A DNA stretch of 64,000 nt, from positions 480,001-544,000 of the forward strand of contig OY970229.1 of NCBI GenBank assembly GCA_963714085.1, read 5' to 3'. This document shows, in pieces, positions 5,801-29,010 of this stretch. The notes below the pieces were generated by a model. It ran no database searches. It was given only the letters and a program-made list of their open reading frames with translations, and had not been told where the DNA came from. Made by a program: the position numbers and the translations under genes. Each line of letters starts with the position of its first letter. Position 1 is the stretch's first letter. The stretch is from an uncultured Candidatus Micrarchaeota archaeon (lineage in GTDB: Archaea > Micrarchaeota > Micrarchaeia > Anstonellales > Bilamarchaeaceae).

Positions 5801-6991
5801 TCATGCCTTCCTGAAAAGGGACCCGAACATCGAGAGCAGCCCGGATTTTTCCGCGCTTTCCGCCTTGCGGTCCGGATTCCCGGAATCCAGAAACTCGATC
5901 AGGCGCGCGACGTCCTTCAGCTCTGCTTCGAGCTCCTTTTTCGAGTATTTGGCGAGCTCTTCCCTGCGTTTGGCGAGGCGCCTGCTTTTCTCGTACTCCT
6001 CTTCGTAAGCGCGCCTCTCCTTCCCCAGGCTCCTCAGGTCTTCGACTGTCTTTCTCTCGCTTTCGCCCATCGCGGAGTAGAAATCCAGCGTCCTCTCGTC
6101 CAGGCCGTCCACTGCCAGGAAGCCGGCCTGGGCGAAGGAGCGCACGGCCTCGAAAAACGCCGCATTGGAGGCGACGATCTTCCTGAACCTGGAGGTCTCG
6201 GGGCAGATGTGCGAGAGCTTCTTCTCGCTGTAGGTCAAGCACTCGCAGAGCTGGCCGACATCGTACCTGCCGAAGGACGGATAATCTGAGAAAAACTGCT
6301 TGAGCTGGGCCATCGCCTCGTTTTCCGGGAAGGACGGGCAGTGCTCTTTCAGGCCCTCCAGCTCACGGAGCAGCTCGGCCACCGGCTTCGAGAGCAGCGA
6401 ATGCAGGTACGCGTCCCTCGATCTCCTCAGCGAGTCCAGGCCTTTCTCGAGCTCGCCGTGCCTGCGGACCTTCTCCTGGTCGATGGTCTCGTTTTCGAGC
6501 TCCGAGATATCGGCCAGCAGCTTCTCAACCCGCAGCTGCTCCCTTCTGAGCGCCCTGCCGCTCTCCTTGAGGTCCTCTTCGGCTTTCTCATAGCTGTCGC
6601 TCAGCTTGATGATACCGTCGAAATACGCGAACTCCTCTTTAGCGGCCGGTATCTTGCCCTCCCGTGCGAGCCTTGCGATGGATGCGAGCCTCTTCCCGGT
6701 GGCCTCAGGCAGATTGCCCTTCTGGAACTCGCTCGCGGCCCACCTTTCGAAATAGACGGAGTCCTTGGACAGTTCCATGGCTCTCTTGGCCATCTTTATC
6801 CGCGTGCTCACTGCCGGGTTCCAGACGGTTTTTCCCTTCTCCTGCACGTCCTCTATCTCGGCTATGAGCAGTTTCAGCTGCTTGGAAAGCTTCACCGTAG
6901 CCGGGCGGTGGCTGGTTCCAATCGTTTCCACTCTCTTTGCCAGGTCCTTGTGCGTTTTTTTAAGCTCGCGTATTTCCTCTTCGCTGATCAT
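5801..6991 (-). CDS. Hypothetical coiled-coil protein
   Basis: 396 aa, E/K/L-rich heptads. Confidence 0.75.
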   Translation of the reverse strand: MISEEEIRELKKTHKDLAKRVETIGTSHRPATVKLSKQLKLLIAEIEDVQEKGKTVWNPAVSTRIKMAKRAMELSKDSVYFERWAASEFQKGNLPEATGKRLASIARLAREGKIPAAKEEFAYFDGIIKLSDSYEKAEEDLKESGRALRREQLRVEKLLADISELENETIDQEKVRRHGELEKGLDSLRRSRDAYLHSLLSKPVAELLRELEGLKEHCPSFPENEAMAQLKQFFSDYPSFGRYDVGQLCECLTYSEKKLSHICPETSRFRKIVASNAAFFEAVRSFAQAGFLAVDGLDERTLDFYSAMGESERKTVEDLRSLGKERRAYEEEYEKSRRLAKRREELAKYSKKELEAELKDVARLIEFLDSGNPDRKAESAEKSGLLSMFGSLFRKA

Positions 6992-7072: not shown

Positions 7073-7085
7073 TGCAGGAGGAAGG
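7073..7085. repeat. att-like core, copy of tRNA-Leu(TAA) 3' end
   Basis: tgcaggaggaagg identical to 18325-18337. Confidence 0.75.
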
Positions 7086-7191
7086 GCCTCAGAACAGCTC
7101 TGAAAGTGCAAGGTAAATTTTTCTATTTTTTTCAAACTTAGTTGCTTGTCCATTTATTAAATTGAAATCAAAAGCTAAAAATAGAAAAAAA

Positions 7192-7470
7192 CTAATCTTC
7201 CGGCATTATTGGGCTTCTCTCATCTGTAAGAGCGAAATATGACTGAAATTTAGCCCGGTATGAAATATATTTCAGGATCCAGCTATGGAGGGCCTTGTTC
7301 CGTTTCCCCGTTATCAAAATATGAAGGAACTGAAAGAGGCAAGTTAAGACACCAATAATAGCAAGTACGATAACGACTATTAGCGATGGTATCATCCATA
7401 AGATCCTTATAATCAGCTCCCACCTGCTTGCTTTTTCAGAGAAGGCCACATTGAATTTAACGTTTTTCAT
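7192..7470 (-). CDS. Small membrane protein, DUF4389-like
   Basis: EKASRWELIIRILWMIP...FLHILITGKRNKALHSW...YFALTDERSP; ATG 7470. Confidence 0.75.
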   Translation of the reverse strand: MKNVKFNVAFSEKASRWELIIRILWMIPSLIVVIVLAIIGVLTCLFQFLHILITGKRNKALHSWILKYISYRAKFQSYFALTDERSPIMPED

Positions 7471-7535
7471 AATCCAAATTAGCAAGTATAAATTTAAATG
7501 ACTCTCGATAACAAATTTTAACGCTGAAATGGGTG

Positions 7536-7607
7536 GCCCTCGTAGTCTAGCCTGGATAGGACGCAACCCTCCGGAGATTGATTGAGGTTTAAATACCCGA
7601 CAAAGCA
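7536..7607 (+). pseudogene. Degenerate tRNA-Arg(CCG)
   Basis: Intact 5' half GCCCTCG-TA-GTCT..GGAC-G-CAACC-CT-CCG-GA; decayed 3' half (GGTTTAAATACCCGACAAAGC) cannot close the acceptor or T stems. Confidence 0.65.
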
Positions 7608-7751
7608 CCCTTTTTAACCTCTGGCCCTCAGACGCTCATTTGGTCGGACGGACACCACTGGTCTGAACTCAGACCAGATCTGAAAGCGCTAGGGCAGGAC
7701 TTCAGATCAGATATGAGTTCCTAAAAAGGCAGGAACTAAGAGTAGATTAAA

Positions 7752-7913
7752 ATGCAGGAGGAAGATGCCGAGACCAGGGCTCGGAACAGAACATTTCCAG
7801 TCCCGAACGATTGGCTCGGTTTCCATGCCTGCACTATCATTTTGGTTCAAGTCAAACCCTGTTTTGACCTCCTAACCGAGGGCTCTTCTGCGGAGAGAAC
7901 TATTTAAAGCTAG
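7752..7913. repeat. att core plus conserved left end of cassette A
   Basis: atgcaggaggaagatgccgagaccag...gttttgacctcctaaccga.ggct.ttctg.ggagagaactat.taaagctag, shared with 9622-9790. Confidence 0.85.
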
Positions 7914-7920
7914 CTCTGAG

Positions 7921-9078
7921 TTATTTTCCATTGCCGTTCAATTCAACCATATCCTCGTCATGAACCGGTCGGAACCACTTTTGCGCTATGAATGTCGGAA
8001 TCACTGCGCTGGTTATGACTACGGCGATAAGGACCGAGAACTGGATCTGATTGACATAACCTGCCTGATAGCCGAAAACGCTGGCAATCGTGCCGAAGGT
8101 CAACCCCGTGCTCATAAGCAGCGTCGTGTACATGCCACCTTCGGGGATGTATTTCTTGGCAAGGAAGTACACGCCTAGGAATTTCGTGATTTGTTTTAGC
8201 AGGAAGAGCGTGACAAACAAGCCGAATGCCGCAACGACCAAGGGAACAGACACCTTCATACCGTCGGTTATGAAGAAGAACGGCGTGATGAGGGCGTATG
8301 CCACGGTTCTGAGCCGATTCCTTACCGCCAGCGTTTCGGGGCTTTCCGTGAAATGCTTCGACATGGCAAGACCTAGTACGAAGGCAGGCAGGACGGCCTG
8401 GCTATCCCCTATCGCCGCGAAATAGCTGAAAATCAGTAAAAGGACAAAGATGTACTTGATTTCCGGCTCTATCACCTTGCCTTTGAGAAGAGGGTTATCG
8501 AAGACCAGATGGGAAAATTTCGTCGCGATCCATATAACTACTATTGAAACGGCGAGGAAAACCCAGGTGTAGAAGGAAGGCTTGATGAAAAGGATGGTGA
8601 GGGCTAGGACCGTGCAAATATCGGTTACAAACGTGGCAGCCATGATGAGTTTCCCCAGCTTCGTTTTCGTCAGGCCTGTCTCGACCAGCACCGAATACAC
8701 GACAGCCAGGGAGGTCGTAGACAGCGCGGCACCCGCGATGAGGGAGGCGTTCAGCGTCCAGCCAGCCATGTAATATGTGTACAGAAACGCGCCCAAGAAG
8801 GGCACGAGAAACGAAGCACAGCCTATCAGCATGCTCTCCTTGAATTTCTCCCGCATCAGGTCGACATCTACTTCGGCGCCTGCGAGGAACGTTAGTAAGA
8901 TGCTGGCGAATCCCGCAAGATAAGTCATCCACGGCTGGGCTTCGATGCCGAGATAGTTGCCTGCGATTACACCTAGGAGAATCTCGATGATGGCAACTGA
9001 AAGCCCAAGTCGAAGAGAGATGAGGCTAGCCAAAAATATCAGCATACCTGCTGCTAAAGGAATCAAAGTCGCATCCAT
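7921..9078 (-). CDS. Cation:proton antiporter (Na+/H+ exchanger family), fluoride-riboswitch associated
   Basis: Multi-TM; FLAGAEVD, ALSTTSLAVV, AATFVTD, TLLMSTGLTFG; ATG 9078 after SD AAGGTG. Confidence 0.9.
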   Translation of the reverse strand: MDATLIPLAAGMLIFLASLISLRLGLSVAIIEILLGVIAGNYLGIEAQPWMTYLAGFASILLTFLAGAEVDVDLMREKFKESMLIGCASFLVPFLGAFLYTYYMAGWTLNASLIAGAALSTTSLAVVYSVLVETGLTKTKLGKLIMAATFVTDICTVLALTILFIKPSFYTWVFLAVSIVVIWIATKFSHLVFDNPLLKGKVIEPEIKYIFVLLLIFSYFAAIGDSQAVLPAFVLGLAMSKHFTESPETLAVRNRLRTVAYALITPFFFITDGMKVSVPLVVAAFGLFVTLFLLKQITKFLGVYFLAKKYIPEGGMYTTLLMSTGLTFGTIASVFGYQAGYVNQIQFSVLIAVVITSAVIPTFIAQKWFRPVHDEDMVELNGNGK

Positions 9079-9102
9079 GGAGAACACCTTTCAACACGGA
9101 TG

Positions 9103-9261
9103 CTAAAACGATTTCAGGAATCCGTCTTTCCCCAATCTGAATTTATGCTCCGGGTTCTTGGGGCAAACGAATACATCGTCCTTCTTGGACAACTGATAGT
9201 TCATGCTGGAATTCATGCGGCATGTCGGACATACCATCGTATACTCACCTGTCATGGGCAT
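9103..9261 (-). CDS. Small putative zinc-finger protein
   Basis: MPMTGEYTMVCPTCRMNSSMNYQLSKKDDVFVCPKNPEHKFRLGKDGFLKSF (CxxC...CxxxxxH); SD GAGGT; start 9261 or 9255. Confidence 0.7.
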   Translation of the reverse strand: MPMTGEYTMVCPTCRMNSSMNYQLSKKDDVFVCPKNPEHKFRLGKDGFLKSF

Positions 9262-9275
9262 CTACCTCTTGAAAA

Positions 9276-9334
9276 GTAGAAGCTATCAGCCCGTTTGGGC
9301 GGTTTGGCTTTTGCCAGGTGAGCTTCATCGCCTA
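9276..9334 (-). promoter_or_regulatory. Fluoride (crcB) riboswitch
   Basis: Minus strand GGCGATGAAGCTCACC-TGGCAAAAGCCA-AACCGCCCAAACGGGC-TGATAGCTTCTAC matches the crcB consensus, including pseudoknot GAAGC/GCTTC. Confidence 0.88.
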
Positions 9335-9459
9335 TCAAAGATTACACAAATAATCTTTAATAGCATTTTGGTTTGATTGGTTTGGATTCCTGCAGTCCCG
9401 AGATTCGTATGGAGTACTACCCAAGAGTCCTGAGACCTGGTCTCTGAACATAAACATAA

Positions 9460-9634
9460 AGATTGGAACCTCGGTTCGAATCTCCAAAACCGCATTTTGT
9501 GTCTTCAGCTACCATAAAATCGTCGAAGAATGCCATTAGGGAACTGAAGAAAATAAAGCAGCAAAACAGAATGGAACCATTGGTTCGGTTCTTTTTCCTG
9601 CGGATTCGAACTAAAATGATGATGCAGGAGGAAG
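9460..9634. repeat. Conserved right end of cassette A plus att core
   Basis: agattggaacctcggttcgaatct...gtcgaagaatg...gaaaataa..cagca...tggaaccattggttcgg.tcttttt..tgc aligns by eye with ~18163-18336. Confidence 0.8.
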
Positions 9635-9790
9635 ATGCCGAGACCAGAACTCGGAGCAGAGCCTTCTCTGCCCCGTCCGTTTGGTTCGAGTCTTCCTTCT
9701 CCAATAACATTTTGGTCCAGGTCAGAACAAACCTCTTGTTTTGACCTCCTAACCGAAGGCTGTTCTGAGGAGAGAACTATATAAAGCTAG
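9622..9790. repeat. att core plus conserved left end of cassette B
   Basis: Homologous to 7752-7913. Confidence 0.85.
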
Positions 9791-9903
9791 GTCTCTGGTT
9801 TCGCTATTTTCCACAATGCCTCGAAATATGTTTCGAAGCTTTTAACCGCTTCCTCGCTTTCGATGAGAAACCCTTTCGGCTCGCGGGTAAAGGAGACCGC
9901 CAT
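9787..9903 (-). pseudogene. C-terminal gene fragment resembling TrmB-type regulator tails
   Basis: ...REPKGFLIESEEAVKSFETYFEALWKIAK; no plausible N-terminus; the stop codon lies within the cassette end sequence. Confidence 0.5.
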
Positions 9904-9977
9904 GGAAGGCGAGGGAGTGCAACGGCCAGTTCTCGCTGAACGTGCTGAAGCCGGATCATTGAGGGTACGCACTGCAC

Positions 9978-10757
9978 CTAAGCTGATCGCAGTAGCGCCG
10001 CATCCGGATACCGATAGGCGCTGCCGATGCCATCCTGCCGTACCAGTTCCGCAAGGGCTTGCGGTGAGAATGCAGCTACTGAGAGGGCCGCCGTCCCCAT
10101 GGCTGATTCTATGCCTTCGAGGTCGTCCACCAGGTGTATCGGCATCGCTGAAAAACTGCCCTTTCTTTTCAGGCATTCGATTATACCCACCTTTTCTAGG
10201 ATGGCGTCGCGGGTCAGTCCAACGCGCCTCAATTCCACGAGCCTGGCGCAAACATCCGGTGGTGCCCTGAAACCAATAACATCCGGCGTCCCTACTGACT
10301 CTGGTCTGTGGATGGTGAATTTCCGCGCCGATAGTCTGTGAACTAATATGTTTCTAAGTACATGCAAGCATCCGCCATCATCGAACAGGCGCTCTATCCC
10401 GTATTCGCCTGATTTGGGCCGATAGGATAGGATTCCGTGGCCAAACTCAGGAAATTCGGCTGCAAGGAAGATGAACAGGTCGGCAATCCCAGGCCTTGGG
10501 TGGAATACTCGCTCCGGCATTTCGAATCCGAGTGTGTTGTCAAGATCCCAGAAAACCATGGCCCGCCCTGCTTTTGCCCACTCTTGGCAGGTCCGGAAAA
10601 CCAGGATGGTGAATCCGATTTCGTTCCCGATGATTCCTGCCTTCGCGTCTTCTTTACGCGTGCAGATAAGCTGCTCCATCAGTGCTTTTTGCCGGCTTAA
10701 GAATTGCCGCAAGCGGGGCTGGACATTTTCGCTTATGGTTGATATGAGCGCACCCAT
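9978..10757 (-). CDS. HAD-like hypothetical protein
   Basis: VFWDLDNTLG (motif I), ILSYR (motif II-like), HLVDD (motif IV). Confidence 0.6.
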   Translation of the reverse strand: MGALISTISENVQPRLRQFLSRQKALMEQLICTRKEDAKAGIIGNEIGFTILVFRTCQEWAKAGRAMVFWDLDNTLGFEMPERVFHPRPGIADLFIFLAAEFPEFGHGILSYRPKSGEYGIERLFDDGGCLHVLRNILVHRLSARKFTIHRPESVGTPDVIGFRAPPDVCARLVELRRVGLTRDAILEKVGIIECLKRKGSFSAMPIHLVDDLEGIESAMGTAALSVAAFSPQALAELVRQDGIGSAYRYPDAALLRSA

Positions 10758-10802
10758 GTTAGTATCAGTGCAATTTCAAGTTTATAAATTATATGGTATT
10801 TA

Positions 10803-11840
10803 TTGTATAGTTATATGTGTTCTCAATCGCGCGCGTGCCGCGCTGGCAGCAGGGAAAAAGTCAAGGTGGCGTTCATCGGAGCCGGGAATATCGCAGCGCA
10901 GCACATGCGAGCGCTTGTCGCATTCCCAGACGTCGCGGTGGAAGGGGTTTGCGACGTCAGTAAAAGCGTCCTTGAGCAAAGGCGTCTGGAGTTCGGCGTA
11001 GGTACGTATTCGTCCGTGGGCGCCATGCTCCGCTCGGTTTCTCCTGACGCCGTGTTCATCTGCCTTCCACCCTACGCCCACGGTGGTGCAGAGCGGGCCT
11101 GCATAAGCCGTGGCATCCCGTTCTTGGTTGAGAAACCACTGTCCAATGACCTGTTCCTTGCCAGGAAAATAGCAGCCGAGGTCCGCAGGACTGGACTGCT
11201 GACCTCCGTCGCCTACATGAACCGTTATAGGCGGAGTGTCCAGAGGGCCAAAGAACTGCTCGGCAAGCATCCCCCCGTTCTGATTGACGCTGGCTGGCGT
11301 ATAGGCACGCCGCTGGGCCACCCTTGGCTGACCCAAAAACGCCTCTCGGGAGGGCAGCTCCTCGAACAGACCACACACTTATTCGACCTCATCAGATACC
11401 TTTGTGGGGAAGCCGCCAGCGTCTATTGCTGCGGCGCTAGGGGCTTCGTTCCAAGGAGCCGCGCATACGATACGGATGATGCGACTGTCGTGAGCCTGTG
11501 CATGAGAAACGGTGCGGTAGCCTCGATACAGAGCTCCTGGTCAAGCGGATTATGCGACATGATACATATCAGGTTCCTCGGACCGGCGATAATGGTGGAA
11601 CTTACTGGCTGGAACCAGGATGCGAGGATAGTCACCAAAAGATCGAGTGTGGAGATAAGCGGCGAAGAGGATATTTTTGCCATCGAGGACAGGGCCTTCC
11701 TGCATGCAGTGAGGAGTGGCGACTCTTCCGGCGTACTCAGCGACTATGGCGAAGGCGTGAGGAGCCTGGAGCTGAGCATTGCAGCCAACATGAGTCTGGA
11801 AACCGGAAAGCCGATCAAACTTCGTGGAGACGGGAAATGA
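10803..11840 (+). CDS. Gfo/Idh/MocA family oxidoreductase
   Basis: KVAFIGAGNIA, LPPYAH, LVEKPL, SGGQLLEQTTHLFD; start may be ATG 10815. Confidence 0.92.
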   Translation: MYSYMCSQSRACRAGSREKVKVAFIGAGNIAAQHMRALVAFPDVAVEGVCDVSKSVLEQRRLEFGVGTYSSVGAMLRSVSPDAVFICLPPYAHGGAERACISRGIPFLVEKPLSNDLFLARKIAAEVRRTGLLTSVAYMNRYRRSVQRAKELLGKHPPVLIDAGWRIGTPLGHPWLTQKRLSGGQLLEQTTHLFDLIRYLCGEAASVYCCGARGFVPRSRAYDTDDATVVSLCMRNGAVASIQSSWSSGLCDMIHIRFLGPAIMVELTGWNQDARIVTKRSSVEISGEEDIFAIEDRAFLHAVRSGDSSGVLSDYGEGVRSLELSIAANMSLETGKPIKLRGDGK

Positions 11841-12315
11841 TCTCCTTTACCGCATCTTCCACCCGTCCGGAGATGTCGATGGTCGTGCCGTAATCTAACC
11901 TGGCAACCAGCCTGTAGACGTCTCTGACAGCCGTTTTTCCGTAAGGCGCGGCCCGCTTTCTGTCCCTTTCGATGCAGATCTCAAGCGGCGCATTCAGGCT
12001 GAATACGAAACCCCGGTAGGGGGACAAGCGGCCCATCAGGTCGTCTATGGCTTCCCTGTGGTAAAAGCAGGCGTCAAAAATCACAATCCGGTCGCCGTCA
12101 AGGTTTTTCCTTGCAGCCGGAGCCATCAGCCTGTCTGCTTTGATGAAGTTTTCAACAGGGATGCAGCCGATTTTCGTATCGATGACGTCCAATCCATTCT
12201 CGGCAAGGACGGCATCAACCGAAACATAAGCGGCTCCCATAGCTGCAGCTATTTTACTTGCAATGGTTGTCTTGCCGCAGCCCAGCGGCCCCCTTATGAT
12301 TACGAAATATGCCAT
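11815..12315 (-). CDS. P-loop small-molecule/nucleotide kinase (AAA_33/gluconate-kinase-like)
   Basis: IIRGPLGCGKTT, VIFDACF, APLEICIERDRKR. Confidence 0.85.
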   Translation of the reverse strand: MAYFVIIRGPLGCGKTTIASKIAAAMGAAYVSVDAVLAENGLDVIDTKIGCIPVENFIKADRLMAPAARKNLDGDRIVIFDACFYHREAIDDLMGRLSPYRGFVFSLNAPLEICIERDRKRAAPYGKTAVRDVYRLVARLDYGTTIDISGRVEDAVKEIISRLHEV

Positions 12316-12478
12316 GGCAGGTCCCAGCGTTCCGGATTGGTTGGTTTCCCTTTTGTATCCCCCTCCCTGGTATTAAATATTCGCCTCAGCCAGCCGCCAC
12401 GGGAGTCCAATTAAAATCTTACACATTTATTTACCTAACAAAACATTATTATACTTTTTCATGGTATAATTAGCAATC

Positions 12479-13660
12479 ATGAATCATTTGGCGTATGCAG
12501 GAAATACTGCAGCTGAAGTTGCGCAGAAAGGCGCTCCGGCAAAGACCAAGATTTCCCTACTGTCGAAAGGCATCGCCTTCGACCTGAGTCTATTCAAGGA
12601 CTTCCCAGGCACTTTCTATGATAACCAGTATGTGTACGGGAGGACCAGCCAGGGTGCCCTGCCTGAGCACAGACTGCCTCAGATACTGAGACTGGGGGAC
12701 GGCGTGGTTACCGCGCTTTTAAGGCGCCGGAACAGCCCCTGGCAACTGAAACTAGAGGGCGAAATTCCGCGGCTGTATTTTGGAGGCAAGTACGTCCAGG
12801 ACGTGGAGCTTCCGGAACGGCCCCCATATTTCGGAAAAGTGCTTGGCGACGGCATTCGGAGCGAATCAGTTATAGCTGTCGCTGGAGAGAGCACGCCAGG
12901 ATTCTTCCTTTATCCGAGATGCTTCTATTTCGGCAGGGGCGAGCCCTGTGGCTTCTGCTCGCTCAAAGGCAACCGTGCGACTTCCGGTAGAGCTATGGCC
13001 ATGGACTTCACGGAAGACCTCGTCGGCAAGGCGACGCGGCTTTTCCAGAATACCGCGTGGAAGGGCATCCCGGTAATATCCATCAGCGCCGGAACCCCAG
13101 CCACGGACGAGGAAAGCATGGAGCAGGTAATCAGGCTGATAAGGGCGGTCTACGACGCCCTCGACCCGAAACTGCCCATCCACGCCCTCGTCCATCCGCC
13201 GAACGACCTGAACCTCATAGAACAGTACAAAAGGGCCGGCCTCACGTCCATCGCTTTCAACCTCGAGGTTTTCGGCAGGGATGCTTTCGCGCGGCTCTGC
13301 CCGGGCAAGGAGAAATTCTATGGTTACGACAGGTGGCTCGAAGCGCTCCGAGTGGCGAGAGACGTTTTCGGCAAGTACTCCGCCTTCTGCGGCCTCGTTT
13401 GGGGTCTTGAGCCTGCCGCCAGCACGATGGAAGGCAACAGGTATTTTTTGGAGAACGGTATCGGCATCGCATCCAACATATTCCACGCGGACCAGCATTC
13501 GCTGATGGCCGCATATTCGCATCCTGCAGAGGAGCTGATACTGGAAGTCGCCATGAACCAGCGGCAGCTATACGCTGAGCATCCTGACGCGAGGACCATC
13601 TTTCCCGTCAGCATGAGGAGCACGCTCGACTGGGAAGTTAAACGGGGTGACCTTGGGTGA
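12479..13660 (+). CDS. Radical SAM protein with CX8CX2C motif
   Basis: RCFYFGRGEPCGFC, ISAGT, AFNLEVF, CPGK, GLVWGLE. Confidence 0.8.
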   Translation: MNHLAYAGNTAAEVAQKGAPAKTKISLLSKGIAFDLSLFKDFPGTFYDNQYVYGRTSQGALPEHRLPQILRLGDGVVTALLRRRNSPWQLKLEGEIPRLYFGGKYVQDVELPERPPYFGKVLGDGIRSESVIAVAGESTPGFFLYPRCFYFGRGEPCGFCSLKGNRATSGRAMAMDFTEDLVGKATRLFQNTAWKGIPVISISAGTPATDEESMEQVIRLIRAVYDALDPKLPIHALVHPPNDLNLIEQYKRAGLTSIAFNLEVFGRDAFARLCPGKEKFYGYDRWLEALRVARDVFGKYSAFCGLVWGLEPAASTMEGNRYFLENGIGIASNIFHADQHSLMAAYSHPAEELILEVAMNQRQLYAEHPDARTIFPVSMRSTLDWEVKRGDLG

Positions 13661-14787
13661 GCGTGTACGTCGATTGCGTGGGCTGCGAGCAGAGGAAACT
13701 GGACGCGCAGAGGCTCGTGAACTGCTTCAGGGCCAATGGGGCGGGGATTGTCAGCTCGGCTAGGAAATGCAACCACGCGGTGCTGGTGACCTGCGCAGTT
13801 GATTCTTCCAACGAAGAACGGTCGCTTTCCATGCTGGACGCAGTATCGCGGGAGTTACCGGAAGGTGCCGGGATGTACATCGGGGGGTGCCTGCCGTCCA
13901 TAAGCCCCGGCAGACTTTCCGGCTATCATCTTCACGGGACATTCTCTCCGCGGACTATGGGAAGCCTTGACGCTATGTTCAACTTTGCAGTGCCAATGGA
14001 TGCAATCGCCAGGCCGAATCGGTCAGTTTTCGATTCCAGTGCGGAACCGATCGGAGTGGTTTCCCCCAGGCAGGCTTACGACGATGCGAAAGCGGGGTTC
14101 AAGGTCGTAATAGACGACGGCTGCCTGATGGGCTGCTCGTACTGCGTGATAAAGCGAGCCACAGGCAGCCTAAGGAGCATGAGCGCGGAAAGCATCCTGG
14201 CGCAAATCAAGGATGGCATCTCAAGAGGCGAGAAGACGATAATGCTCATGGGCGGGGACGCTGGCGCCTACGGGAAGGACATCGGAACCGGGCTGCAGCG
14301 ATTGCTCTCCGACATCCTAGCAATTCCATCAGAGTTCAGGCTCTTCATACACGATTTCAACGTGAACTGGCTGATACGTGGCGCGGAAGAGTACCTCCGC
14401 GTCTTTTCATCCTCTGGCGGCAGGAAAATCGGCGCAATATGCTTCCCCATCCAGTCTGGCAGCGACCGCATACTGGCCTTGATGAAAAGGGGCCACACGT
14501 CCGGGAGCGCGGCCGAGGCGCTTAAGCAGGTCCGCTCTGTTTCGCCCGGCATGGGCCTAGGCACCCATGTGATAATCGGTTTTCCTAGCGAGGCTGACGC
14601 TGATTTTGCAGCTACGATGGGCATGCTCGAATACGTCGGTTTCGATTTCATCACCTGCTTCCCATACTCTGAGCATGCGTTGGCCGGTTCCGCTGCCCTG
14701 GCTGGAAAGGTCGGACCTGAAGCCGTGGAAGCCAGGTTCGAAAGAATATCCTCGGTGTTTGGGGACCGAGTGAAAATAGTGAGATGA
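13657..14787 (+). CDS. Methylthiotransferase-like radical SAM (UPF0004 + rSAM) lacking TRAM
   Basis: GCEQRKLD, TCAV, GGCLP; GCLMGCSYC; PIQSGSDRILALMKRGH; IIGFPSE; ends at 376 aa without TRAM. Confidence 0.88.
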   Translation: MSVYVDCVGCEQRKLDAQRLVNCFRANGAGIVSSARKCNHAVLVTCAVDSSNEERSLSMLDAVSRELPEGAGMYIGGCLPSISPGRLSGYHLHGTFSPRTMGSLDAMFNFAVPMDAIARPNRSVFDSSAEPIGVVSPRQAYDDAKAGFKVVIDDGCLMGCSYCVIKRATGSLRSMSAESILAQIKDGISRGEKTIMLMGGDAGAYGKDIGTGLQRLLSDILAIPSEFRLFIHDFNVNWLIRGAEEYLRVFSSSGGRKIGAICFPIQSGSDRILALMKRGHTSGSAAEALKQVRSVSPGMGLGTHVIIGFPSEADADFAATMGMLEYVGFDFITCFPYSEHALAGSAALAGKVGPEAVEARFERISSVFGDRVKIVR

Positions 14788-14791
14788 CGGC

Positions 14792-16675
14792 ATGGCGGTC
14801 TTGTGCGTTGCCAGGGATTTTACAGCGCTTCACGGTACGAGAAGCGTGAAAAGGGACGGGTTCAGGGCCGAGGTCAGGCTCTCCGGAAATATCTCCAAAG
14901 GTTTTGTCAGCGGCCTGGACCACGCAACGTTGCAGAAAGCCCTGGGTGAAACCGTGGCGCGGCTGGAAGGTTCGTATCTCGACGACGTGGTCGGCAGGGC
15001 AACCAACGAAAACATTGCCCTTTATATAATGCACTCGCTGGCCGGCCTGCCCGTGGGTTCCGTGCTGGTGAGGGAAGGCCAGGGGCAGTCAGTGGAAGTA
15101 TCTTCGTCAGACCTGGATTCAAGCGCTTATCCGGCATACTTATATTTGAGCAGGGCGCAGAGCTTGCTGCTCAGGGATAAGATTCTAGAAGCCACGGCTG
15201 CCGCGGAGGCAGCCATAAGGCTGGACCCCGCCGTGGCCGAAGCCCACAATCTCATGGGCAGATGCCAGAAATACCTTGGGCACAATGACCTGGCTGCTGA
15301 AAGCTATGCGAGGGCTGTGGTCCTGCAGCCTAATTTCGGAGATGCCTACCGTAACCTCGGGAATGCGTACCTTGAACTAGGCCGGTACAGTGAGATGGCC
15401 GAGGCGTTCGCCAGGGCGACGGAGCTGACACCCGGTTCGGCTTTAGCATTCAACAACCGCGGTTTCGGGTATCAGAAGCTTGGTGACCTCAGGCGGGCGC
15501 TTGAGTGCCATTCGAAGGCCATAGAACTTGACCCGCATTACGCTGAAGCCTATGAGGACAGGAGCAAGGTGCACGAGGCACTTGGAAATGCCGAGATGGC
15601 CAGGCAGGACGTCGCGACGGCGAAGGAACTGATATCGTCAGGAACTGACACCTATTCGCCAATCACGCCATATTATGATGGCAATGCCATGCCCAGATAT
15701 GTGCCGCCGGATCTGTATTACGGTATCGCAGTCTATAACGAGGAAGGGAACATTCGCAGGTGCCTGGATTCGCTTGAGCGGCAGAGCTTCGAGGGCAGGG
15801 TCGAGACCATCATCTGCCTCAACGGCTGCACTGACCGGAGCGAGAAGGAAGCCCATGAAGGCAAGGCGAAGTACCCAGGGCTGAACGTAAAAATCATACA
15901 CAGCAAAAAGAAGGGCAAGGCGTTCGCCCAGAACCAGATTATCCGCTCAATCAGGGACAGGACCGTTCCCATAGCCTTCATAGACGCCGATGTGGTGCCG
16001 GAAACTGACTGCATGGCAGTTCTGGAGCGGGAGTTACGCAGCCTGAAGCAGCTCGTTGCCGTGGGCACATGGCCTGAACCTGAACGCGGTCCACGGCAGT
16101 CCCTCTGGCAGCGATTCCTTTACTGGATATTGTATGCCCGGGCCTTTTACCCGCAAGCCGAAGTATCCGGGCATGACGTTTCTGCATACAAGCGCTTTGC
16201 CAGGCAAAACCCACAGCCCCTGGTGAGTCCTGAGTTCGAGATGCGCTCGAAGATATTCTTTCACGGTAGGACGTTCATGCTGAGGAATGCCTCCTTCTTT
16301 CGCCTGCCGGAAGATGCAAACGTGGCAGACGATACCTACCTGCCGAATTTCATCCATACGACATACGGTCCGGGTACCGTAAGGATAAGATACGACGCCA
16401 AGGTGCTCTACAAGCCATATCTCTCGCTAAGGGCGCATTTCAAGGCCTACTGGCGGGTGTACTCAGACCTTCGGAGAATGGACCTGGAAGGCGCTTTTGC
16501 GGAGTCTAGGAAGCTGGAAAAGACGAGGCTTGACTGGAAGTTCATATTTTCAAAAGGCATTGCCACGTCCCTGCAGTTCGCGATATACAGGTTCGTCGTA
16601 GGAGTTGAACGGGCGCTCTACCATATGCTTCCGGAAAAGAAGCTGGGCGAACTCTGGTATTATCAGAAAAAATAG
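14792..16675 (+). CDS. Fusion: degenerate QueD/PTPS-like domain + TPR repeats + GT2 glycosyltransferase
   Basis: N-terminal FTALH...GLDH..LQKAL...LEGSYLDD..RATNENIALYI; several TPRs (AEAHNLMG, DAYRNLGNAY, AFNNRGF, AEAYEDRS); IAVYNEEGNI, NGCTD, GKAFAQN, FIDADV. Confidence 0.8.
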   Translation: MAVLCVARDFTALHGTRSVKRDGFRAEVRLSGNISKGFVSGLDHATLQKALGETVARLEGSYLDDVVGRATNENIALYIMHSLAGLPVGSVLVREGQGQSVEVSSSDLDSSAYPAYLYLSRAQSLLLRDKILEATAAAEAAIRLDPAVAEAHNLMGRCQKYLGHNDLAAESYARAVVLQPNFGDAYRNLGNAYLELGRYSEMAEAFARATELTPGSALAFNNRGFGYQKLGDLRRALECHSKAIELDPHYAEAYEDRSKVHEALGNAEMARQDVATAKELISSGTDTYSPITPYYDGNAMPRYVPPDLYYGIAVYNEEGNIRRCLDSLERQSFEGRVETIICLNGCTDRSEKEAHEGKAKYPGLNVKIIHSKKKGKAFAQNQIIRSIRDRTVPIAFIDADVVPETDCMAVLERELRSLKQLVAVGTWPEPERGPRQSLWQRFLYWILYARAFYPQAEVSGHDVSAYKRFARQNPQPLVSPEFEMRSKIFFHGRTFMLRNASFFRLPEDANVADDTYLPNFIHTTYGPGTVRIRYDAKVLYKPYLSLRAHFKAYWRVYSDLRRMDLEGAFAESRKLEKTRLDWKFIFSKGIATSLQFAIYRFVVGVERALYHMLPEKKLGELWYYQKK

Positions 16676-16697
16676 CTGTGGATGGAGGGTGAGAATC

Positions 16698-18017
16698 ATG
16701 CAAAAGAAGCTGAAACGAGGGCCTCCGGCCCATGAACGTCCGATGTGGCGCCTTGCACGAAACATGACGCCTTGCGCGACGGAGATAGTGAGTGGAAAGG
16801 GCATATATTTCAGGGACAGCAGTGGCAAGGAGTACATGGACCTGACCGCCCAGACACTCAACCTGAACCTCGGCCACCGCCATCCGTCCATAATGCGGGC
16901 CGTGCTTGCGAAGCTGCGTGAAGACGGATTTACCTACTACGTGTCGCCCAGATTCGGAAACCGCCACGTCTCGCAATTGGCGCAGAAGCTGGTTTCGCTG
17001 GCTCCTGAGGGTCTCAACAGGGTGAACCTGCACTTGTGCAACGGAAGCGACGCGAACGAGGACGCGATAAAGCGGGCGAGGAAGTACCACGACGGAAAGA
17101 GGATGACGATAATCTCGTTCAAGGGAAGTTTCCTGGGGACTTCCTGCGAATCCATCAGCGCGTCCGGTGGCAATTTCTACAAGGAGGCGTGCCTTGGTGG
17201 CTCAGGGCAATATGTCTTTCTGGACTCCGTGATGCCGAATAGGATACCGAAGGGGTCCAGCCTCGAAGAGGAGGTCCAATCCAGGCTCATGGACGTGGAA
17301 CAAACTATCAAAAGAAGGAGGGACATAGCCGGAATCATAATGGAGCTAGTCCCTTTCAACGCAGGAGTCATCGTCCTTCCGAGGGAATATGTGAAGGGGA
17401 TAGAGAGGATATGCAAGGAGAACGACGTGGCGCTGCTGGTGGACGAGGTCCAGACCGCCTTCGGCTGGTGCGGCGACGTATTCGCGTCGAATGTATATGG
17501 CATAAGGCCCGACGTGATAACCCTGGCCAAGGGGATGACGGCCGGCTTCCCTGCCCTGGCGGCAACAGTCTTCAAGGCGAAATACGACGTCCTGACGGGC
17601 GGGACTTCCGAGAACACATTCGGCGCTCAAACGCTCGGCTGCGTGGCGACGATCGCGAACATCGACTATCTGGTTTCGTCCGGCATAATGGATGCGATAC
17701 CAGCAAAACACGCCTTGTTCATGGAGCACCTGGAAAGGATGAAAGACGCGTATCCGTTCATAGGCGACGTCAGGGGAATAGGGCTGATGTTCGGAATAGA
17801 CTTCGTTCGCGCTGACGGAACGCCCGACATGGAGACGAACATCGACGTCTACCAGGCGGCGTTCATGCGTGGATTGTCAGTAAACGTCTCGACCTCCCAA
17901 AGGGGAAAACACAACGTGATAAGCCTCAAGCCGCCCCTGACGATAACATTAAGGGAAATAAACGAGGCTATGAGTCGTCTGGGCGATGCCATGCGCTCCG
18001 TAGCGAAGAAAAGATAA
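16698..18017 (+). CDS. Class III PLP-dependent aminotransferase (divergent)
   Basis: GKGIYFRD..GKEYMD, NLGHRHP, LLVDEVQTAFG, PDVITLAKG, GDVRGIGLM, KPPL; ATG 16698 after SD GGAGGGTG. Confidence 0.92.
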   Translation: MQKKLKRGPPAHERPMWRLARNMTPCATEIVSGKGIYFRDSSGKEYMDLTAQTLNLNLGHRHPSIMRAVLAKLREDGFTYYVSPRFGNRHVSQLAQKLVSLAPEGLNRVNLHLCNGSDANEDAIKRARKYHDGKRMTIISFKGSFLGTSCESISASGGNFYKEACLGGSGQYVFLDSVMPNRIPKGSSLEEEVQSRLMDVEQTIKRRRDIAGIIMELVPFNAGVIVLPREYVKGIERICKENDVALLVDEVQTAFGWCGDVFASNVYGIRPDVITLAKGMTAGFPALAATVFKAKYDVLTGGTSENTFGAQTLGCVATIANIDYLVSSGIMDAIPAKHALFMEHLERMKDAYPFIGDVRGIGLMFGIDFVRADGTPDMETNIDVYQAAFMRGLSVNVSTSQRGKHNVISLKPPLTITLREINEAMSRLGDAMRSVAKKR

Positions 18018-18162
18018 TAGAGCTGCACAGTTTTTGGCATGCCTTTGACACGTCAGTTCTTTGCCAAACTTTTTTCCTAAAAAGGTAGGTGCAGAAGATA
18101 CCGAGCCATAAGAAGAACCTTGCCCACGAGATCCCAGACTAGGGCTCGGAGCATCCGCTTAG

Positions 18163-18336
18163 AGATTAGAACCAAAGTTCGAATCTTCAAGAGTGCATTT
18201 CGTTTTGTCAGATACAACAAATATGTCGAAGAATGATGCTAAAATAATTAGAAAATAATTCAGCAGAAAAGATTGGAATCATTGGTTCGGGTCTTTTTCT
18301 TGCAGTCCCGAACCTTTGATTCTATGCAGGAGGAAG
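18163..18336. repeat. Conserved right end of cassette B abutting tRNA-Leu
   Basis: Homologous to ~9460-9634. Confidence 0.8.
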
Positions 18337-18409
18337 GATTTGAACCTTCGAAGGCACTAAGCCAGCGGATCTTAAGTCCGCCGCGTTTTCCGGACTTCGC
18401 TACTCCTGC
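18325..18409 (-). tRNA. tRNA-Leu(TAA)
   Basis: GCAGGAG...GCGGA-CT-TAA-GA-TCCGC, long variable arm, GGTTCAAATCC, CTCCTGCA. Confidence 0.96.
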
Positions 18410-18436
18410 ATGATTAGAAAATATTTATCCAGACTG

Positions 18437-20045: not shown

Positions 20046-21587
20046 ATGAAAACAATGAAAACTGAACAAACAGGATGTAAAGTTGCTGAAAGGACGACTG
20101 GACCGACGACATCAACTCGTGGGTTCAAGAATAGAATGCTTATCACGACTGTCGGCGCCGCAGGCCTTGCGATATTATCGACGGCGTCGTGCAGCAAAAA
20201 TTCGGGAACGAGCGAAGACGCGGGCGCGTGCCAGACACTGAAGGACGATGCCGGCTTTACTACCTGCTCTCCGGGTTGCGAGATGGGCTTGGTTCCGACA
20301 AGCTCGAATGATGGCGCGGTGTCCACGGCTAAATGCGTGCCGAAGAAGGCTGTAGACGCTTCTACCAGTGAGGCTTCCGCCACGGATGTTTCAGGAGGCG
20401 AGGCTGCGGAGGAATCAGAGGCAGGATTAGTTTCACCGCAGGATGCAACTGCACTGGATGCTACTAATAAGAGTGATGCTGCAGGTCCGATGTGCAGCAC
20501 TGCGACCAAACTCAGGGCCAATGCATCGGTCGGTGGCGCCTGGGAGATGAACGGCTTCCCGTGCAACACCAATGGGAGCCCGTCTGAATTCACTGACGGC
20601 GATAGCCCCAAGTTGAAGACTGATACAGGCGAGAAAGTGCCTTGTTCCGCCGCAGTCACGAATCAACCGGAACTGACGGTCAATGTCACATGCGAGGTAC
20701 CGTCGCAAGATGGAGGCGTGGTGCAGGTGGTATTCACTGCGGTTCAAGGCGGATGCGTAAAATCTGCGGGCGGAGTTAGCCAGAAGTGCCCCGATGACCA
20801 GGACATAGCATTGGATGGCAACAGCACTCAAGTCTCCCAGAATGGTTCTGAGTCGGTGATGAAGGTCACCGGATCACAGCAGTCCGATAGGCTGATGCTA
20901 TCGACCTCCGGCTCTGCTGCTGGCTCTGCGGCCACCACGAAGGGCCTGGACTCGACGGGCAACGTCAAGGCGACGGGATCTTCGTGTGGTGTCGGTGCCG
21001 ACGGCTCAGTGGCCTTCGGAGGCCAGATTGCCGGCCCGACAAGCATGACTTTCTGCTGCGCTCCATTGCCGCTCGGGCAGTCAGTGCCTGCGGGCGCTGT
21101 CGCGCTCCAAGTAGAGGGCAGCCAGACCAATATGGGACCCAACTCCGCGGCGACTGCAAGCCCGGTATTCGGTGGCGCTGTCTTGCCGGACATCCCGGTG
21201 GGCGGTTCATTCGTAGTGGCCGGCCAGGTGACGACGCTCAAGGCCGCGATGACCAATGGCACTTATGGCGCGATCGAGATCGACGGCCAGGCGGGAACCT
21301 GTGTAATCCCAGCTGGGCAGGACAGCAACACTGCATGCGGTCAGACGTTCAATGGCGGTGCGTTGGCACTGCCTGCGGCGAGTGCGGTACACTCGACTGG
21401 CGCATGCCCGGTGACGGGCCAGGACGGGGGAGCTAAAGACGCCCCGAAAGGAGCAGACGTTGCTCCAACCGGACCGGTCGCTGATGCGAGCGCGGCGAAA
21501 CCGGCGGATGCGAGCACTGCTCCGGCACCCGTGGTCGACGCCACCGCAGTTCAGAGCGCGGCCCCGGTTGATGCAGGATCGGACTGA
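20046..21587 (+). CDS. Secreted or lipoprotein-like Cys/Gly/Ser/Thr-rich protein with DAG/DGG/DAS motifs
   Basis: Hydrophobic stretch ending in LAILSTASC; many Cys; low-complexity C-terminus. Confidence 0.7.
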   Translation: MKTMKTEQTGCKVAERTTGPTTSTRGFKNRMLITTVGAAGLAILSTASCSKNSGTSEDAGACQTLKDDAGFTTCSPGCEMGLVPTSSNDGAVSTAKCVPKKAVDASTSEASATDVSGGEAAEESEAGLVSPQDATALDATNKSDAAGPMCSTATKLRANASVGGAWEMNGFPCNTNGSPSEFTDGDSPKLKTDTGEKVPCSAAVTNQPELTVNVTCEVPSQDGGVVQVVFTAVQGGCVKSAGGVSQKCPDDQDIALDGNSTQVSQNGSESVMKVTGSQQSDRLMLSTSGSAAGSAATTKGLDSTGNVKATGSSCGVGADGSVAFGGQIAGPTSMTFCCAPLPLGQSVPAGAVALQVEGSQTNMGPNSAATASPVFGGAVLPDIPVGGSFVVAGQVTTLKAAMTNGTYGAIEIDGQAGTCVIPAGQDSNTACGQTFNGGALALPAASAVHSTGACPVTGQDGGAKDAPKGADVAPTGPVADASAAKPADASTAPAPVVDATAVQSAAPVDAGSD

Positions 21588-21623
21588 AGTTTCTTTTTTA
21601 TTTTCCTTTAATTATCTGGCGCC

Positions 21624-22019
21624 CTACTCTTTTATGCCCAGAACCTCGCGAGCCTTGTCCATGTCGAACTGGGCTGGCTTGAAGGCTACCTCGGTGTAGT
21701 CGTTCTTCTTGGAGACGATGTAGAGCGATTCGAGGTTCACGCCCCTGTTGGCGAGCTTCCTCGTTATCTTGCCCAGCTCCCCGGGCCTGTTGAGCATCTT
21801 CATCACGATGATCTCAGACTCCTGGACCTTGACCTCCGGGATCTTGGATAGCGCCTTGGTGGCGCTGGCCGAGTCCGCCGTGAGCACCCTGAAGAAGGCC
21901 TTCTCTGCGAAGCCGTAGCAGGAGATGGCCTCGATGTTGACCCCGACGCCGCCGAGCGCCTCGGCGACCGTGGCGAGCGAGCCGACCTGGTTCTTCGCGA
22001 TGATGATGAGCTCTTTCAT
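21624..22019 (-). CDS. Double ACT domain protein
   Basis: NQVGSLATVAEALGGVGVNIEAI and NRPGELGKITRKLANRGVNLESLY. Confidence 0.9.
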   Translation of the reverse strand: MKELIIIAKNQVGSLATVAEALGGVGVNIEAISCYGFAEKAFFRVLTADSASATKALSKIPEVKVQESEIIVMKMLNRPGELGKITRKLANRGVNLESLYIVSKKNDYTEVAFKPAQFDMDKAREVLGIKE

Positions 22020-22090
22020 GGGAAATCACCGAGAAAGCTATCCGAAACAAAGATTAAATAGGTTGCTATGGAGAAAGGAGCAGAAGACAG

Positions 22091-22417
22091 ATGAAAAGCA
22101 TGGCAGTGACGAAAAAGCAGATAATGGGGAAATTGTCTGGTGTCGTGGACCCGGAACTCGGGGTAAGCATCGTCGACCTCGGGCTGATTTACGAAGTGCA
22201 CGTGAAAAAGGCGCCGAAGAAGGGCAAGCAGAAGGCCGAGATAGTGATGACACTGACCACGCCGGCGTGCCCTTTGGCGGACTACCTGCTCGGGCAGGTT
22301 GAATCCAGGCTGAACGAGCTGCCGGACATAGACATAAACGTCCGGGTGGTGTTCCAGCCTGCCTGGAGCCCGGACAGGATGTCTGAGAAGGCGAAGATCG
22401 CATTGGGAATGAAATGA
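22091..22417 (+). CDS. DUF59/SufT-like Fe-S cluster assembly protein
   Basis: VVDPELGVSIVDLGLIY, MTLTTPACPL, PAWSPDRMS. Confidence 0.93.
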   Translation: MKSMAVTKKQIMGKLSGVVDPELGVSIVDLGLIYEVHVKKAPKKGKQKAEIVMTLTTPACPLADYLLGQVESRLNELPDIDINVRVVFQPAWSPDRMSEKAKIALGMK

Positions 22418-22433
22418 GCATAGGAGTGATATA

Positions 22434-23777: not shown

Positions 23778-23857
23778 GACGCAGCTTTAAGATGCTTACT
23801 TGATTTTTTAGTGGCCCGCAGGATAAGGGATGGAAAAGTGAAAAGAAACGAACCCTT

Positions 23858-28845: not shown

Positions 28846-28858
28846 ATATAGTCACCTT

Positions 28859-28996
28859 CTAGAGAGTGAAAGCTACTGGAACGGGCGCGCTGACTAGCGG
28901 CGCCCTGGTTTTGCCAAATCCCGTCGCTGGTGCCGAAAGGCTTGTTAACAATGCTGCCGTTGCCACCACTTTCGCGGTCGTTTGTCTCCATCCCAT
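28859..28996 (-). CDS. Small signal-peptide-like ORF (45 aa)
   Basis: MGWRQTTAKVVATAALLTSLSAPATGFGKTRAPLVSAPVPVAFTL; SD GGTGA; fills the gap between two co-oriented genes. Confidence 0.45.
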   Translation of the reverse strand: MGWRQTTAKVVATAALLTSLSAPATGFGKTRAPLVSAPVPVAFTL

Positions 28997-29010
28997 AATG
29001 TCACCATGCA

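Follow-up and report, generated by a model that had tools for sequence, protein, structure and literature searches.

In a 64,000-nucleotide stretch of DNA from an uncultured Candidatus Micrarchaeota archaeon (contig OY970229.1, positions 480,001 to 544,000; hereafter the window), we describe a mobile gene cassette whose conserved core consists of a radical S-adenosylmethionine (SAM) protein with a CX8CX2C motif (rSAM1), a methylthiotransferase (MTTase)-like radical SAM protein, a tetratricopeptide repeat (TPR) protein, mostly with a QueD-like domain, and a glycosyltransferase of family GT2. The cluster is real, conserved, mobile and built from known enzyme families, and it is apparently undescribed; its most striking part seems, from sequence comparison, to be the MTTase-like protein, which lacks the TRAM domain and appears to represent a distinct clade. 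The explanation that we favour, with a probability of roughly 0.4, is that this horizontally moved cassette turns a purine nucleotide of the host pool into a methylthiolated and glycosylated nucleoside or nucleotide, whose likely role would be chemical defence against viruses or competitors. As an earlier sequence-only reading had recognized, the core lies in a tight operon of four co-oriented open reading frames (ORFs), with a 4-bp overlap followed by gaps of 4 and 22 bp, the third frame (14792-16675) encoding a fusion protein of 627 aa. Its parts are listed here, with the prefix L denoting numbered loci from other genomes.

12479-13660, plus strand: rSAM1, CX8CX2C radical SAM protein of the NF045502 family, 393 aa (NF045502, 293.7 bits).
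13657-14787, plus strand: TRAM-less MTTase-like radical SAM protein, 376 aa (UPF0004 and Radical_SAM domains).
14792-15118, plus strand: degenerate QueD-like (T-fold) domain, resembling 6-pyruvoyl-tetrahydropterin synthase (PTPS), of the 627-aa protein (profile matches to PH0634, 2dj6, and E. coli QueD).
15119-15660, plus strand: TPR domain of the 627-aa protein (PF00515).
15701-16675, plus strand: GT2 domain of the 627-aa protein, of soluble GT-A type and with a DxD motif (PF00535, E 3.4e-15; no transmembrane segment by hydropathy).
16698-18017, plus strand: class III pyridoxal phosphate-dependent aminotransferase, accessory (PF00202, E 1.6e-75; 61-65% identity to the aminotransferases of L001, L002 and L012).

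The cluster recurs elsewhere, which is what a synteny search had been proposed to decide; a lack of co-occurrence in other genomes, which would have overturned the earlier reading, is not what we see. A scan of GTDB with two peptide patterns, which yields a sample of the family, confirmed 21 of 28 candidate loci with a CX8CX2C radical SAM gene of the NF045502 family, and gene presence in these was scored by tblastn. Fourteen of the 21 hold the MTTase-like gene, and all 14 of these hold the TPR gene as well. GT2 of some kind is present in every locus, within 8 kb in 20 and about 10 kb off in L016, and separate GT2 genes 40-54% identical to that of the window occur in 13 of the 21. The QueD-like domain accompanies 12 of the 14 MTTase loci (it is missing in L003 and L021), and a soluble GT2 likewise 12, whereas L009 and L012 encode a membrane GT2; in L017, rSAM1 and a soluble GT2 occur with neither MTTase nor TPR. 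Beyond these loci, 122 of 5,834 candidates are related to rSAM1 (45-73% identity among the 120 matches listed), and close full-length relatives of the MTTase-like protein, 363-385 aa long, number 88 with the window copy included. Forty-one of these 88 lie on sequences that match, by length, one bearing an rSAM1 homolog, against a mean of 0.46 and a maximum of 4 in a jittered null. The core is found in DPANN archaea as well as in Bacteroidales, Alphaproteobacteria and Bacillota. That unrelated genes came together on an island by chance might be suspected from the HAD-like gene, which is unique to this locus, and from the varying order of accessory genes, but it is refuted by synteny: the same core order and tight spacing are found in 14 loci of archaea and bacteria, with co-occurrence far above the null, which leaves this idea a practically negligible probability.

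In six bacterial loci, which we call type B (L010, L011, L015, L016, L018 and L019), rSAM1 is found with a xanthine/guanine phosphoribosyltransferase (PRTase)-like gene and a membrane GT2. The PRTase-like gene directly follows rSAM1 in all six, replacing the MTTase and TPR genes of type A; two type-B loci add a B12 radical SAM protein and an APH kinase, and a nucleoside diphosphate (NDP)-sugar epimerase and LOG are also variably present. Type B forms one clade inside type A in a quick tree. The constant part of all loci is rSAM1 plus GT2, and the partner is either the MTTase/TPR pair or a purine PRTase. Type-B cassettes occur in cultured bacteria, among them Nostoc sp. NIES-4103 and Pyxidicoccus fallax, and offer a tractable entry point. 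Among individual loci, the four-gene core of L005 (2-11094; Bacteroidales) stands with almost no gap behind a Druantia system (DruE, DruK, a cytosine methylase and a Vsr-like gene), the GT2 of L013 is in three pieces (13151-14121) through decay or assembly errors, and L004 carries a possible dehydrogenase remnant (6346-6813), seen by eye only.

In the MTTase-like protein, UPF0004 and Radical_SAM domains were found and TRAM was not, in agreement with the sequence-only reading. PF00919 scores above its cut-off, and the cysteines of the auxiliary cluster (C10, C46 and C78) and of the CX3CX2C radical SAM motif (C156, C160 and C163) are kept in 88 of 88 full-length members. The accessible part of one paper gives the auxiliary-cluster ligands of MTTases as CX35-36CX32-33C in the N-terminal UPF0004 domain (PMC5352715); the spacing here is X35/X31, the second gap being one residue shorter. 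The profile of the family aligns to residues 1-354 of 438 in RimO and 19-382 of 457 in MiaB, and the proteins end about eight residues later; because the alignment runs to the TRAM boundary and the protein then ends, TRAM is absent and not merely undetected. There is no PF01938 (TRAM) match in the rows of the family, and the next gene encodes the QueD-TPR protein, not TRAM. The protein scores below every NCBIfam MTTase cut-off (197 against 251 bits for TIGR00089, with the MiaB, MtaB, e-MtaB and RimO models far below), partly because TRAM is missing, and its structural model superposes on MtaB, MiaB and RimO with TM scores of 0.74-0.79. It has in common with MiaB, MtaB/e-MtaB and RimO the three UPF0004 cysteines, CX3CX2C, the QSGS and VGFP motifs and the fold, and differs from them in lacking TRAM and in being encoded in a mobile operon. 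Motifs of its own are CEQR, TCAVD, GGD, HDFN and GTH.

MTL1 is the fifth MTTase family. The 20 sampled members of the TRAM-less family form one clade in a quick tree that held no reference sequence of the fifth family (SH-aLRT 99). Five MTTase families are mentioned, and all MTTases are described as TRAM-bearing, in the portion of PMC5352715 available to us, and tRNA and S12 are the only known MTTase substrates according to the accessible text of PMC10702137. Other short MTTase-like proteins, P0214-P0217 (388-403 aa), fall outside the clade, and two of them, P0214 and P0217, also stop where TRAM would begin, and the loss of TRAM is thus shared with proteins outside this family. In titles and abstract beginnings, most subscription journals and bioRxiv supplements being outside the coverage, we found no description of the cluster or of a TRAM-less MTTase family; equally, we could not match the gene combination, which the earlier reading did not recognise, to a described pathway. 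The cassette may hold a sulfur-methylating enzyme for a target other than tRNA or a ribosomal protein.

A nucleic acid might nevertheless be the target: the cassette could hypermodify a base in DNA or RNA so as to mark self from non-self, comparable to Dpd or to phage base-glycosylation systems. MTTases natively modify adenine in tRNA (PMC10702137, in part), the fold of the QueD-like domain fits such a role, the kinase and HAD genes resemble nucleotide-end processing, and L005 adjoins Druantia. Against this, TRAM has been lost and the family is less basic than canonical MTTase cores (median isoelectric point 6.3, n=88, versus 8.2, n=23), and the loci share no conserved DNA-binding, DpdA, FolE, QueC, QueE or nuclease partner. 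Carriage by phages or plasmids was likewise not seen: GT2 has zero matches in either collection, the rSAM1 matches are at most 29% identical, the 50,697 phage records giving one weak partial match, and the phage MTTase matches look like ordinary MTTases (one inspected). We regard modification of nucleic acid as quite unlikely.

The identification of rSAM1 as a CX8CX2C radical SAM protein stands: C148-x8-C157-x2-C160 is present, and the protein belongs to the NF045502 variant radical SAM family by its hidden Markov model (HMM) cut-off of 125 bits as well as by its motif. The motif occurs in 118 of the 120 listed homologs, and its three cysteines together with K277 are kept in nearly all of 121 aligned distant relatives. 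CX8CX2C subgroups are noted in Megacluster-4-6 of RadicalSAM.org in the accessible part of PMC9477430; no described function was found for the NF045502 subfamily to which rSAM1 belongs. A sequence search against the PDB gave no match. The predicted structure is of high confidence (predicted local distance difference test, pLDDT, 94.6), and its nearest folds are PylB, LipA, HydE, HydG, MqnE and BioB, tied at Z 16-17, so that no reaction is singled out. Several near-invariant Arg and Lys residues suggest a phosphorylated substrate.

In the 627-aa protein, the N-terminal QueD-like domain, the TPRs and the GT2 that the sequence-only reading had recognized are all real, but the first is degenerate and its supposed QueD chemistry is not supported. 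QueD and PTPS enzymes have three zinc histidines and catalytic Cys/His residues. The domain matches PH0634 (2dj6, E 3.9e-10) and E. coli QueD (E 1e-4) by profile, and 9 of 12 members have a PTPS (PF01242) match with E no higher than 1, the window copy falling below the cut-off (16.4 versus 22.4 bits). Like QueD and PTPS, it has a T-fold profile and keeps the first His and TxE, both invariant in 12 of 12 members; unlike them, it has lost two zinc histidines (HGH is replaced by non-His residues) and the His of LDH (now LDD), has no conserved Cys, is fused to TPRs and is dispensable. It is most likely non-catalytic, judging from these residues, with a binding or scaffold role. Synthesis of a pterin or 7-deazaguanine glycoside driven by this domain could be imagined, given a T-fold that retains invariant residues and adjoins or is fused to a glycosyltransferase; the missing zinc ligands and LDH histidine, the absence of the domain from 2 of the 14 MTTase loci and the lack of FolE, QueE or QueC nearby make it a highly improbable account.

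Eight TPR residues (N188, N191, N221, N222, R223, Y250, E252 and D256) are invariant in 14 of 14 sequences. The full-length QueD-TPR-GT2 fusion has one other case, P0242 (67% identity), the genes being separate in the 14 MTTase loci; the fusion is natural but rare, and an assembly error was rejected as its cause, since P0242 carries it independently. A complex prediction for the MTTase-like and QueD-TPR proteins returned a score of 0.00, which is no answer and speaks neither for nor against binding.

What lies around the core points mostly to nucleotide handling. NT5C-like HAD proteins occur in 7 of the 21 loci (one of five members scanned matches NT5C weakly) and the P-loop kinase in 8, APH kinases are present in L003, L015 and L016, all without the P-loop kinase, and L018 has a LOG phosphoribohydrolase, L017 CYTH and PfkB, and L021 CysQ/IMPase. 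NDP-sugar epimerases are found in L010, L015 and L022, and GT1/GT4 in L020. On an Agrobacterium pusense plasmid, the operon of L022 (6762-11677) joins an OxsB homolog (E 5.7e-74) to a 28%-identical NF045502 radical SAM protein, NUDIX, a GalE-like gene and an MFS transporter, and adjoins a restriction gene; by its gene content it is a candidate oxetane-nucleoside cluster. These neighbours (the PRTase, nucleotidase-like HAD, kinase, LOG, CYTH, PfkB and CysQ/IMPase genes, and the OxsB/NUDIX link) favour a purine substrate. Further candidate oxetane-nucleoside clusters are seen in L024, L025 and L026, where OxsB-like genes on Streptomyces and Nocardia plasmids stand with an aldo/keto reductase, phosphatase, aminotransferase, formyltransferase or PRTase.

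From these genes we infer a substrate, an order of steps, a product and a role as follows. An accessory nucleotidase, kinase, PRTase or LOG would first set the state of the substrate as base, nucleoside or nucleoside monophosphate. rSAM1 would then abstract a hydrogen from the phosphorylated substrate and remodel its sugar or a side group, after which the TRAM-less MTTase, using two [4Fe-4S] clusters and SAM, would add -SCH3 to the free molecule, most simply at adenine C2 as MiaB and MtaB do. GT2 would transfer a sugar from an NDP-sugar, with the TPR protein as a scaffold and the dead QueD domain perhaps binding a purine or pterin-like ring. In loci that have them, the dehydrogenase and the class III aminotransferase would turn one hydroxyl into an amine, and phosphorylation of the product for self-protection or activation would fall to the P-loop kinase or, in loci lacking it, to an APH kinase. 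The suggested defence role draws on the mobility of the cassette and its adjacency to Druantia in one locus. The sequence-only reading is supported in that the cluster is unusual and probably biosynthetic, with a small molecule of nucleoside or glycoside type as the preferred product.

Several findings weigh against this proposal. The case for substrate and product is drawn from gene neighbourhoods, an argument of guilt by association. Among solved structures, the one that the MTTase-like profile matches best is the protein-modifying RimO (E 4e-58, versus 3e-46 for MiaB), and compared with MiaB, TCSIR has become TCAVD (Arg to Asp), GQN has become GGD, and the Asp of (S/T)TD is His at position 304; the Arg of TCSIR is important in MiaB, and with these changes adenine-C2 chemistry is not assured. 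GT2 membrane segments, present in 8 of the 21 loci (L009, L012 and the six of type B; the hydropathy analysis was run on five), would fit a lipid or envelope acceptor better. No transporter is conserved across the loci. The PRTase loci form one clade in the quick tree and count as one event, and the OxsB link is one distant locus, the three other OxsB-like plasmid loci having no further annotated radical SAM gene next to their OxsB homolog. Adjacency to defence genes is clear in 1 of the 21 loci, and the four core proteins have no match in PADLOC 2.0 (Dpd, pVip and others), the kinase having only a 32-residue P-loop match to VakA.

Some of these points lead to the main rival, in which the cassette decorates the envelope by glycosylating and methylthiolating a membrane lipid or surface protein. 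Hopanoid side-chain genes comprise a radical SAM gene, a nucleoside-cleaving enzyme, GT2, a B12 radical SAM gene and a class III aminotransferase. The cassette might act like these, or it might resemble protein glycosyltransferases of the TPR-GT2 type, the TPR taking over from TRAM by bringing a protein to a RimO-like enzyme. The membrane-anchored GT2 of eight loci, a TPR domain that has an invariant Asn/Arg groove and that is joined to GT2 in two independent sequences, the match to RimO, the epimerases and GT1/GT4, and weak matches to HpnB, HpnI and HpnJ, far below cut-off, all fit such a role. The GT2 of type A, in contrast, has no transmembrane segment, no gene for a target protein, precursor peptide, flippase or oligosaccharyltransferase is conserved near the loci, and the neighbouring genes for PRTase, nucleotidase-like HAD, LOG and OxsB speak for purine nucleotides. 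We consider an envelope target somewhat unlikely. A cluster for a ribosomally synthesized and modified peptide or glycocin was rejected, as there is no conserved small precursor peptide: 337 intergenic ORFs of 15-111 aa gave no cross-locus match, although a very divergent or distant precursor would escape such a comparison. No conserved upstream RNA was found either, the upstream DNA matches coming mainly from loci where the kinase gene sits there.

The mobility on which the purine nucleoside proposal draws can be read from the ends of the element.

18324-18410, minus strand: host tRNA-Leu(TAA), whose 3' end is the integration site (ARAGORN, Rfam).
18123-18336, minus strand: tRNA-proximal element end, with an attachment (att) core and an arm of about 218 bp with inverted repeats (71% identity to the corresponding end of the next element, 9420-9634).
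9622-9794, minus strand: tRNA-distal element end, with an arm of about 175 bp and a duplicated tRNA 3'-end core (79% identity to the corresponding end of the next element, 7752-7917).

A 12-mer from the 3' end of tRNA-Leu(TAA) (18336) is repeated exactly at 9634, 7764 and 7084, each time downstream of the tRNA; the rest of the window has no copy, and by arithmetic about 0.008 copies are expected by chance. All seven ORFs, the operon and the three genes upstream of it, lie between the tRNA and the first repeat, in an 8.7-kb element (about 9623-18325), and GC content at third codon positions (GC3) is 0.59-0.72 in these genes against 0.80-0.91 in nine host genes, a tenth (59054-60568) being excluded from this range. 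The region has the tRNA 3'-end direct repeat and the atypical composition of a tRNA-integrated genomic island. Among the scanned ORFs between 7073 and 18336 there is no integrase, so the element is non-autonomous or has lost its integrase. Within the 8.7-kb element Rfam had zero matches, and a scan for sigma-70 promoters and terminators stayed at chance level and is not apt for an archaeon.

Behind the tRNA-Leu (7073-18336) there are in fact three tandem elements of 8.7, 1.9 and 0.7 kb, each closed by a copy of the tRNA 3' end, and the first two, the second lying at about 7753-9623, have both long palindromic end arms in common (218 bp and 175 bp). The whole resembles an array of cassettes anchored at a tRNA and devoid of an integrase. 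In the 1.9-kb element, a CPA2 cation:proton antiporter gene (7921-9341, minus strand) stands behind a fluoride riboswitch (Rfam RF01734, 9270-9341), and the sole gene of the 0.7-kb element encodes DUF4389 (7192-7608, minus strand) with very low GC (GC3 0.47 over the 3' part). A short frame in the end of the 8.7-kb element (9787-9925, minus strand) looks by eye like a C-terminal fragment of a TrmB-type regulator, with no NCBIfam match at 1e-10.

Three genes precede the operon within the 8.7-kb element.

9978-10757, minus strand: HAD-like ORF, in this locus only (DxDxT-like and DD motifs in the sequence; no family match).
10842-11840 (longest ORF from 10803), plus strand: Gfo/Idh/MocA NAD(P) dehydrogenase, accessory (PF01408; 46-57% identity to the homologs of L001, L002, L012 and L021).
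11815-12315, minus strand: P-loop kinase for a small molecule or nucleotide, accessory and divergent from the operon (AAA_18/AAA_33; 34-50% identity to kinases in 8 of the 21 loci).

The sequence-only reading had placed this trio in the same cassette as the operon. It does lie inside the same att-bounded element, but its genes face different ways: the HAD-like ORF and the kinase are read from the minus strand, whereas the dehydrogenase, which shares 26 nt with the tail of the kinase gene, is read from the plus strand. The trio is not a single unit with the operon, and these mixed orientations mean that it is not co-transcribed with it. The kinase, the dehydrogenase and the class III aminotransferase were correctly identified. 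The HAD-type motifs of the first ORF are visible by eye, but it has zero Pfam or NCBIfam matches and no homolog in other loci; it resembles unnamed viral HAD/NIF/T5-dNMPase clusters (Atlas, 0.89-0.92), a lead only, and kinship with the NT5C-like HADs of other loci was rejected for want of a BLAST or HMM match. The dehydrogenase scores 106 against a cut-off of 355 with the IolG model. For the aminotransferase, no NCBIfam equivalog cut-off was reached among the best 25 matches shown, and its true start may be 16743, as homologs begin about 15 codons after 16698.

The aminotransferase, previously counted in the core, turned out to be accessory. It is complete in only 3 of the 21 loci (L001, L002 and L012), each time with the dehydrogenase, as in the window, and an 80-aa remnant persists in L014 (10950-11189); in four MTTase loci the sequence stops no more than about 4 kb downstream, and among the ten with at least 6 kb downstream, on which absence was judged, it is present in three. 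NtdABC combines a conserved dehydrogenase, a DegT aminotransferase and a HAD phosphatase. A trio of this kind had been suggested as the main logic of the cluster. In a reading of this type, an amino sugar or aminocyclitol would be the main product, NtdABC- or Hyg17/Hyg8-like, with the radical SAM enzymes tailoring it. The constant pairing of aminotransferase and dehydrogenase is consistent with this, as are the IMPase-family gene beside the dehydrogenase homolog of L021 and the pairing of PF01408 proteins with aminotransferases for hydroxyl-to-amine conversion, which the accessible part of PMC10949010 presents as established. The aminotransferase is, however, of class III, the pair is decayed in L014, and the HAD-like gene is not conserved; with the pair in so few loci, such a product is very unlikely to be the main one, and the suggestion is not supported.

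Elsewhere in the window, HydE and HydG, adjacent [FeFe]-hydrogenase maturases (51263-53901, plus strand), both score above their NCBIfam cut-offs, here in an archaeon; the host probably lives anaerobically and has the means to mature radical SAM enzymes with Fe-S clusters. The window also holds an archaeal RNase P RNA, a thermosome gene and an aCPSF1-like gene, all marks of an archaeal host, which its named relatives suggest to be of the DPANN group. Beside the RNase P RNA lies a fourth tRNA (39078-39166, minus strand), found by Rfam only and without an ARAGORN report. Four large ORFs at 20046-32265 (513, 1004, 658 and 1084 aa) have no Pfam match; the two inspected are rich in Cys, Gly and Thr and look secreted or surface-exposed.

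With about 90 MTTase-related proteins that have both cluster sites, no TRAM and one operon, a third class of MTTase substrate becomes directly testable, and candidate partners and substrates for a so far uncharacterised subfamily of CX8CX2C radical SAM proteins can be read from the operon. DPANN archaea are usually regarded as biosynthetically minimal, and the cassette points to specialised metabolism on their mobile islands. In a bolder form of our proposal, which we hold to be unlikely, the TRAM-less family would be a new MTTase class acting on a free purine nucleotide and, with rSAM1 and GT2, would make an antiviral or antagonistic methylthio-nucleoside glycoside, spread in DPANN archaea on integrase-less, tRNA-anchored cassettes.

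IsrB, BciD and the MSMEG_0568 family are the nearest named systems to rSAM1. With the model of the last (TIGR04043) it scores 63.1 bits against a cut-off of 303.7 and is not a member. BciD oxidises a methyl to a formyl group, according to the accessible part of PMC7242693; some database homologs of rSAM1 are automatically named after it, and the rSAM1 locus has no pigment pathway. Hyg17/Hyg8 of hygromycin A (PMC10949010, in part) and NtdABC have a similar pairing of Gfo/Idh/MocA dehydrogenase and aminotransferase, which in this cassette is accessory.

The closest parallels may lie among nucleoside natural products, in which the blasticidin S and puromycin clusters also have comparable tailoring genes; to our knowledge, none of the oxetanocin, albucidin, blasticidin S and puromycin clusters contains an MTTase or a QueD-TPR protein. 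Type A and the window differ further from oxetanocin and albucidin in having no OxsB homolog. The pairing of an OxsB homolog with an NF045502 radical SAM protein in L022 resembles AlbA/AlbB (AlsA/AlsB) of albucidin; AlbA, likened by description only, is a BioB-like radical SAM enzyme working with an OxsB homolog, as the accessible parts of PMC7074753 and PMC13331322 state. Radical SAM remodelling of a nucleotide, combined with tailoring by a phosphatase, glycosyltransferase, dehydrogenase and aminotransferase, is the feature in which the proposed pathway and the oxetanocin (OxsAB) and albucidin clusters are alike.

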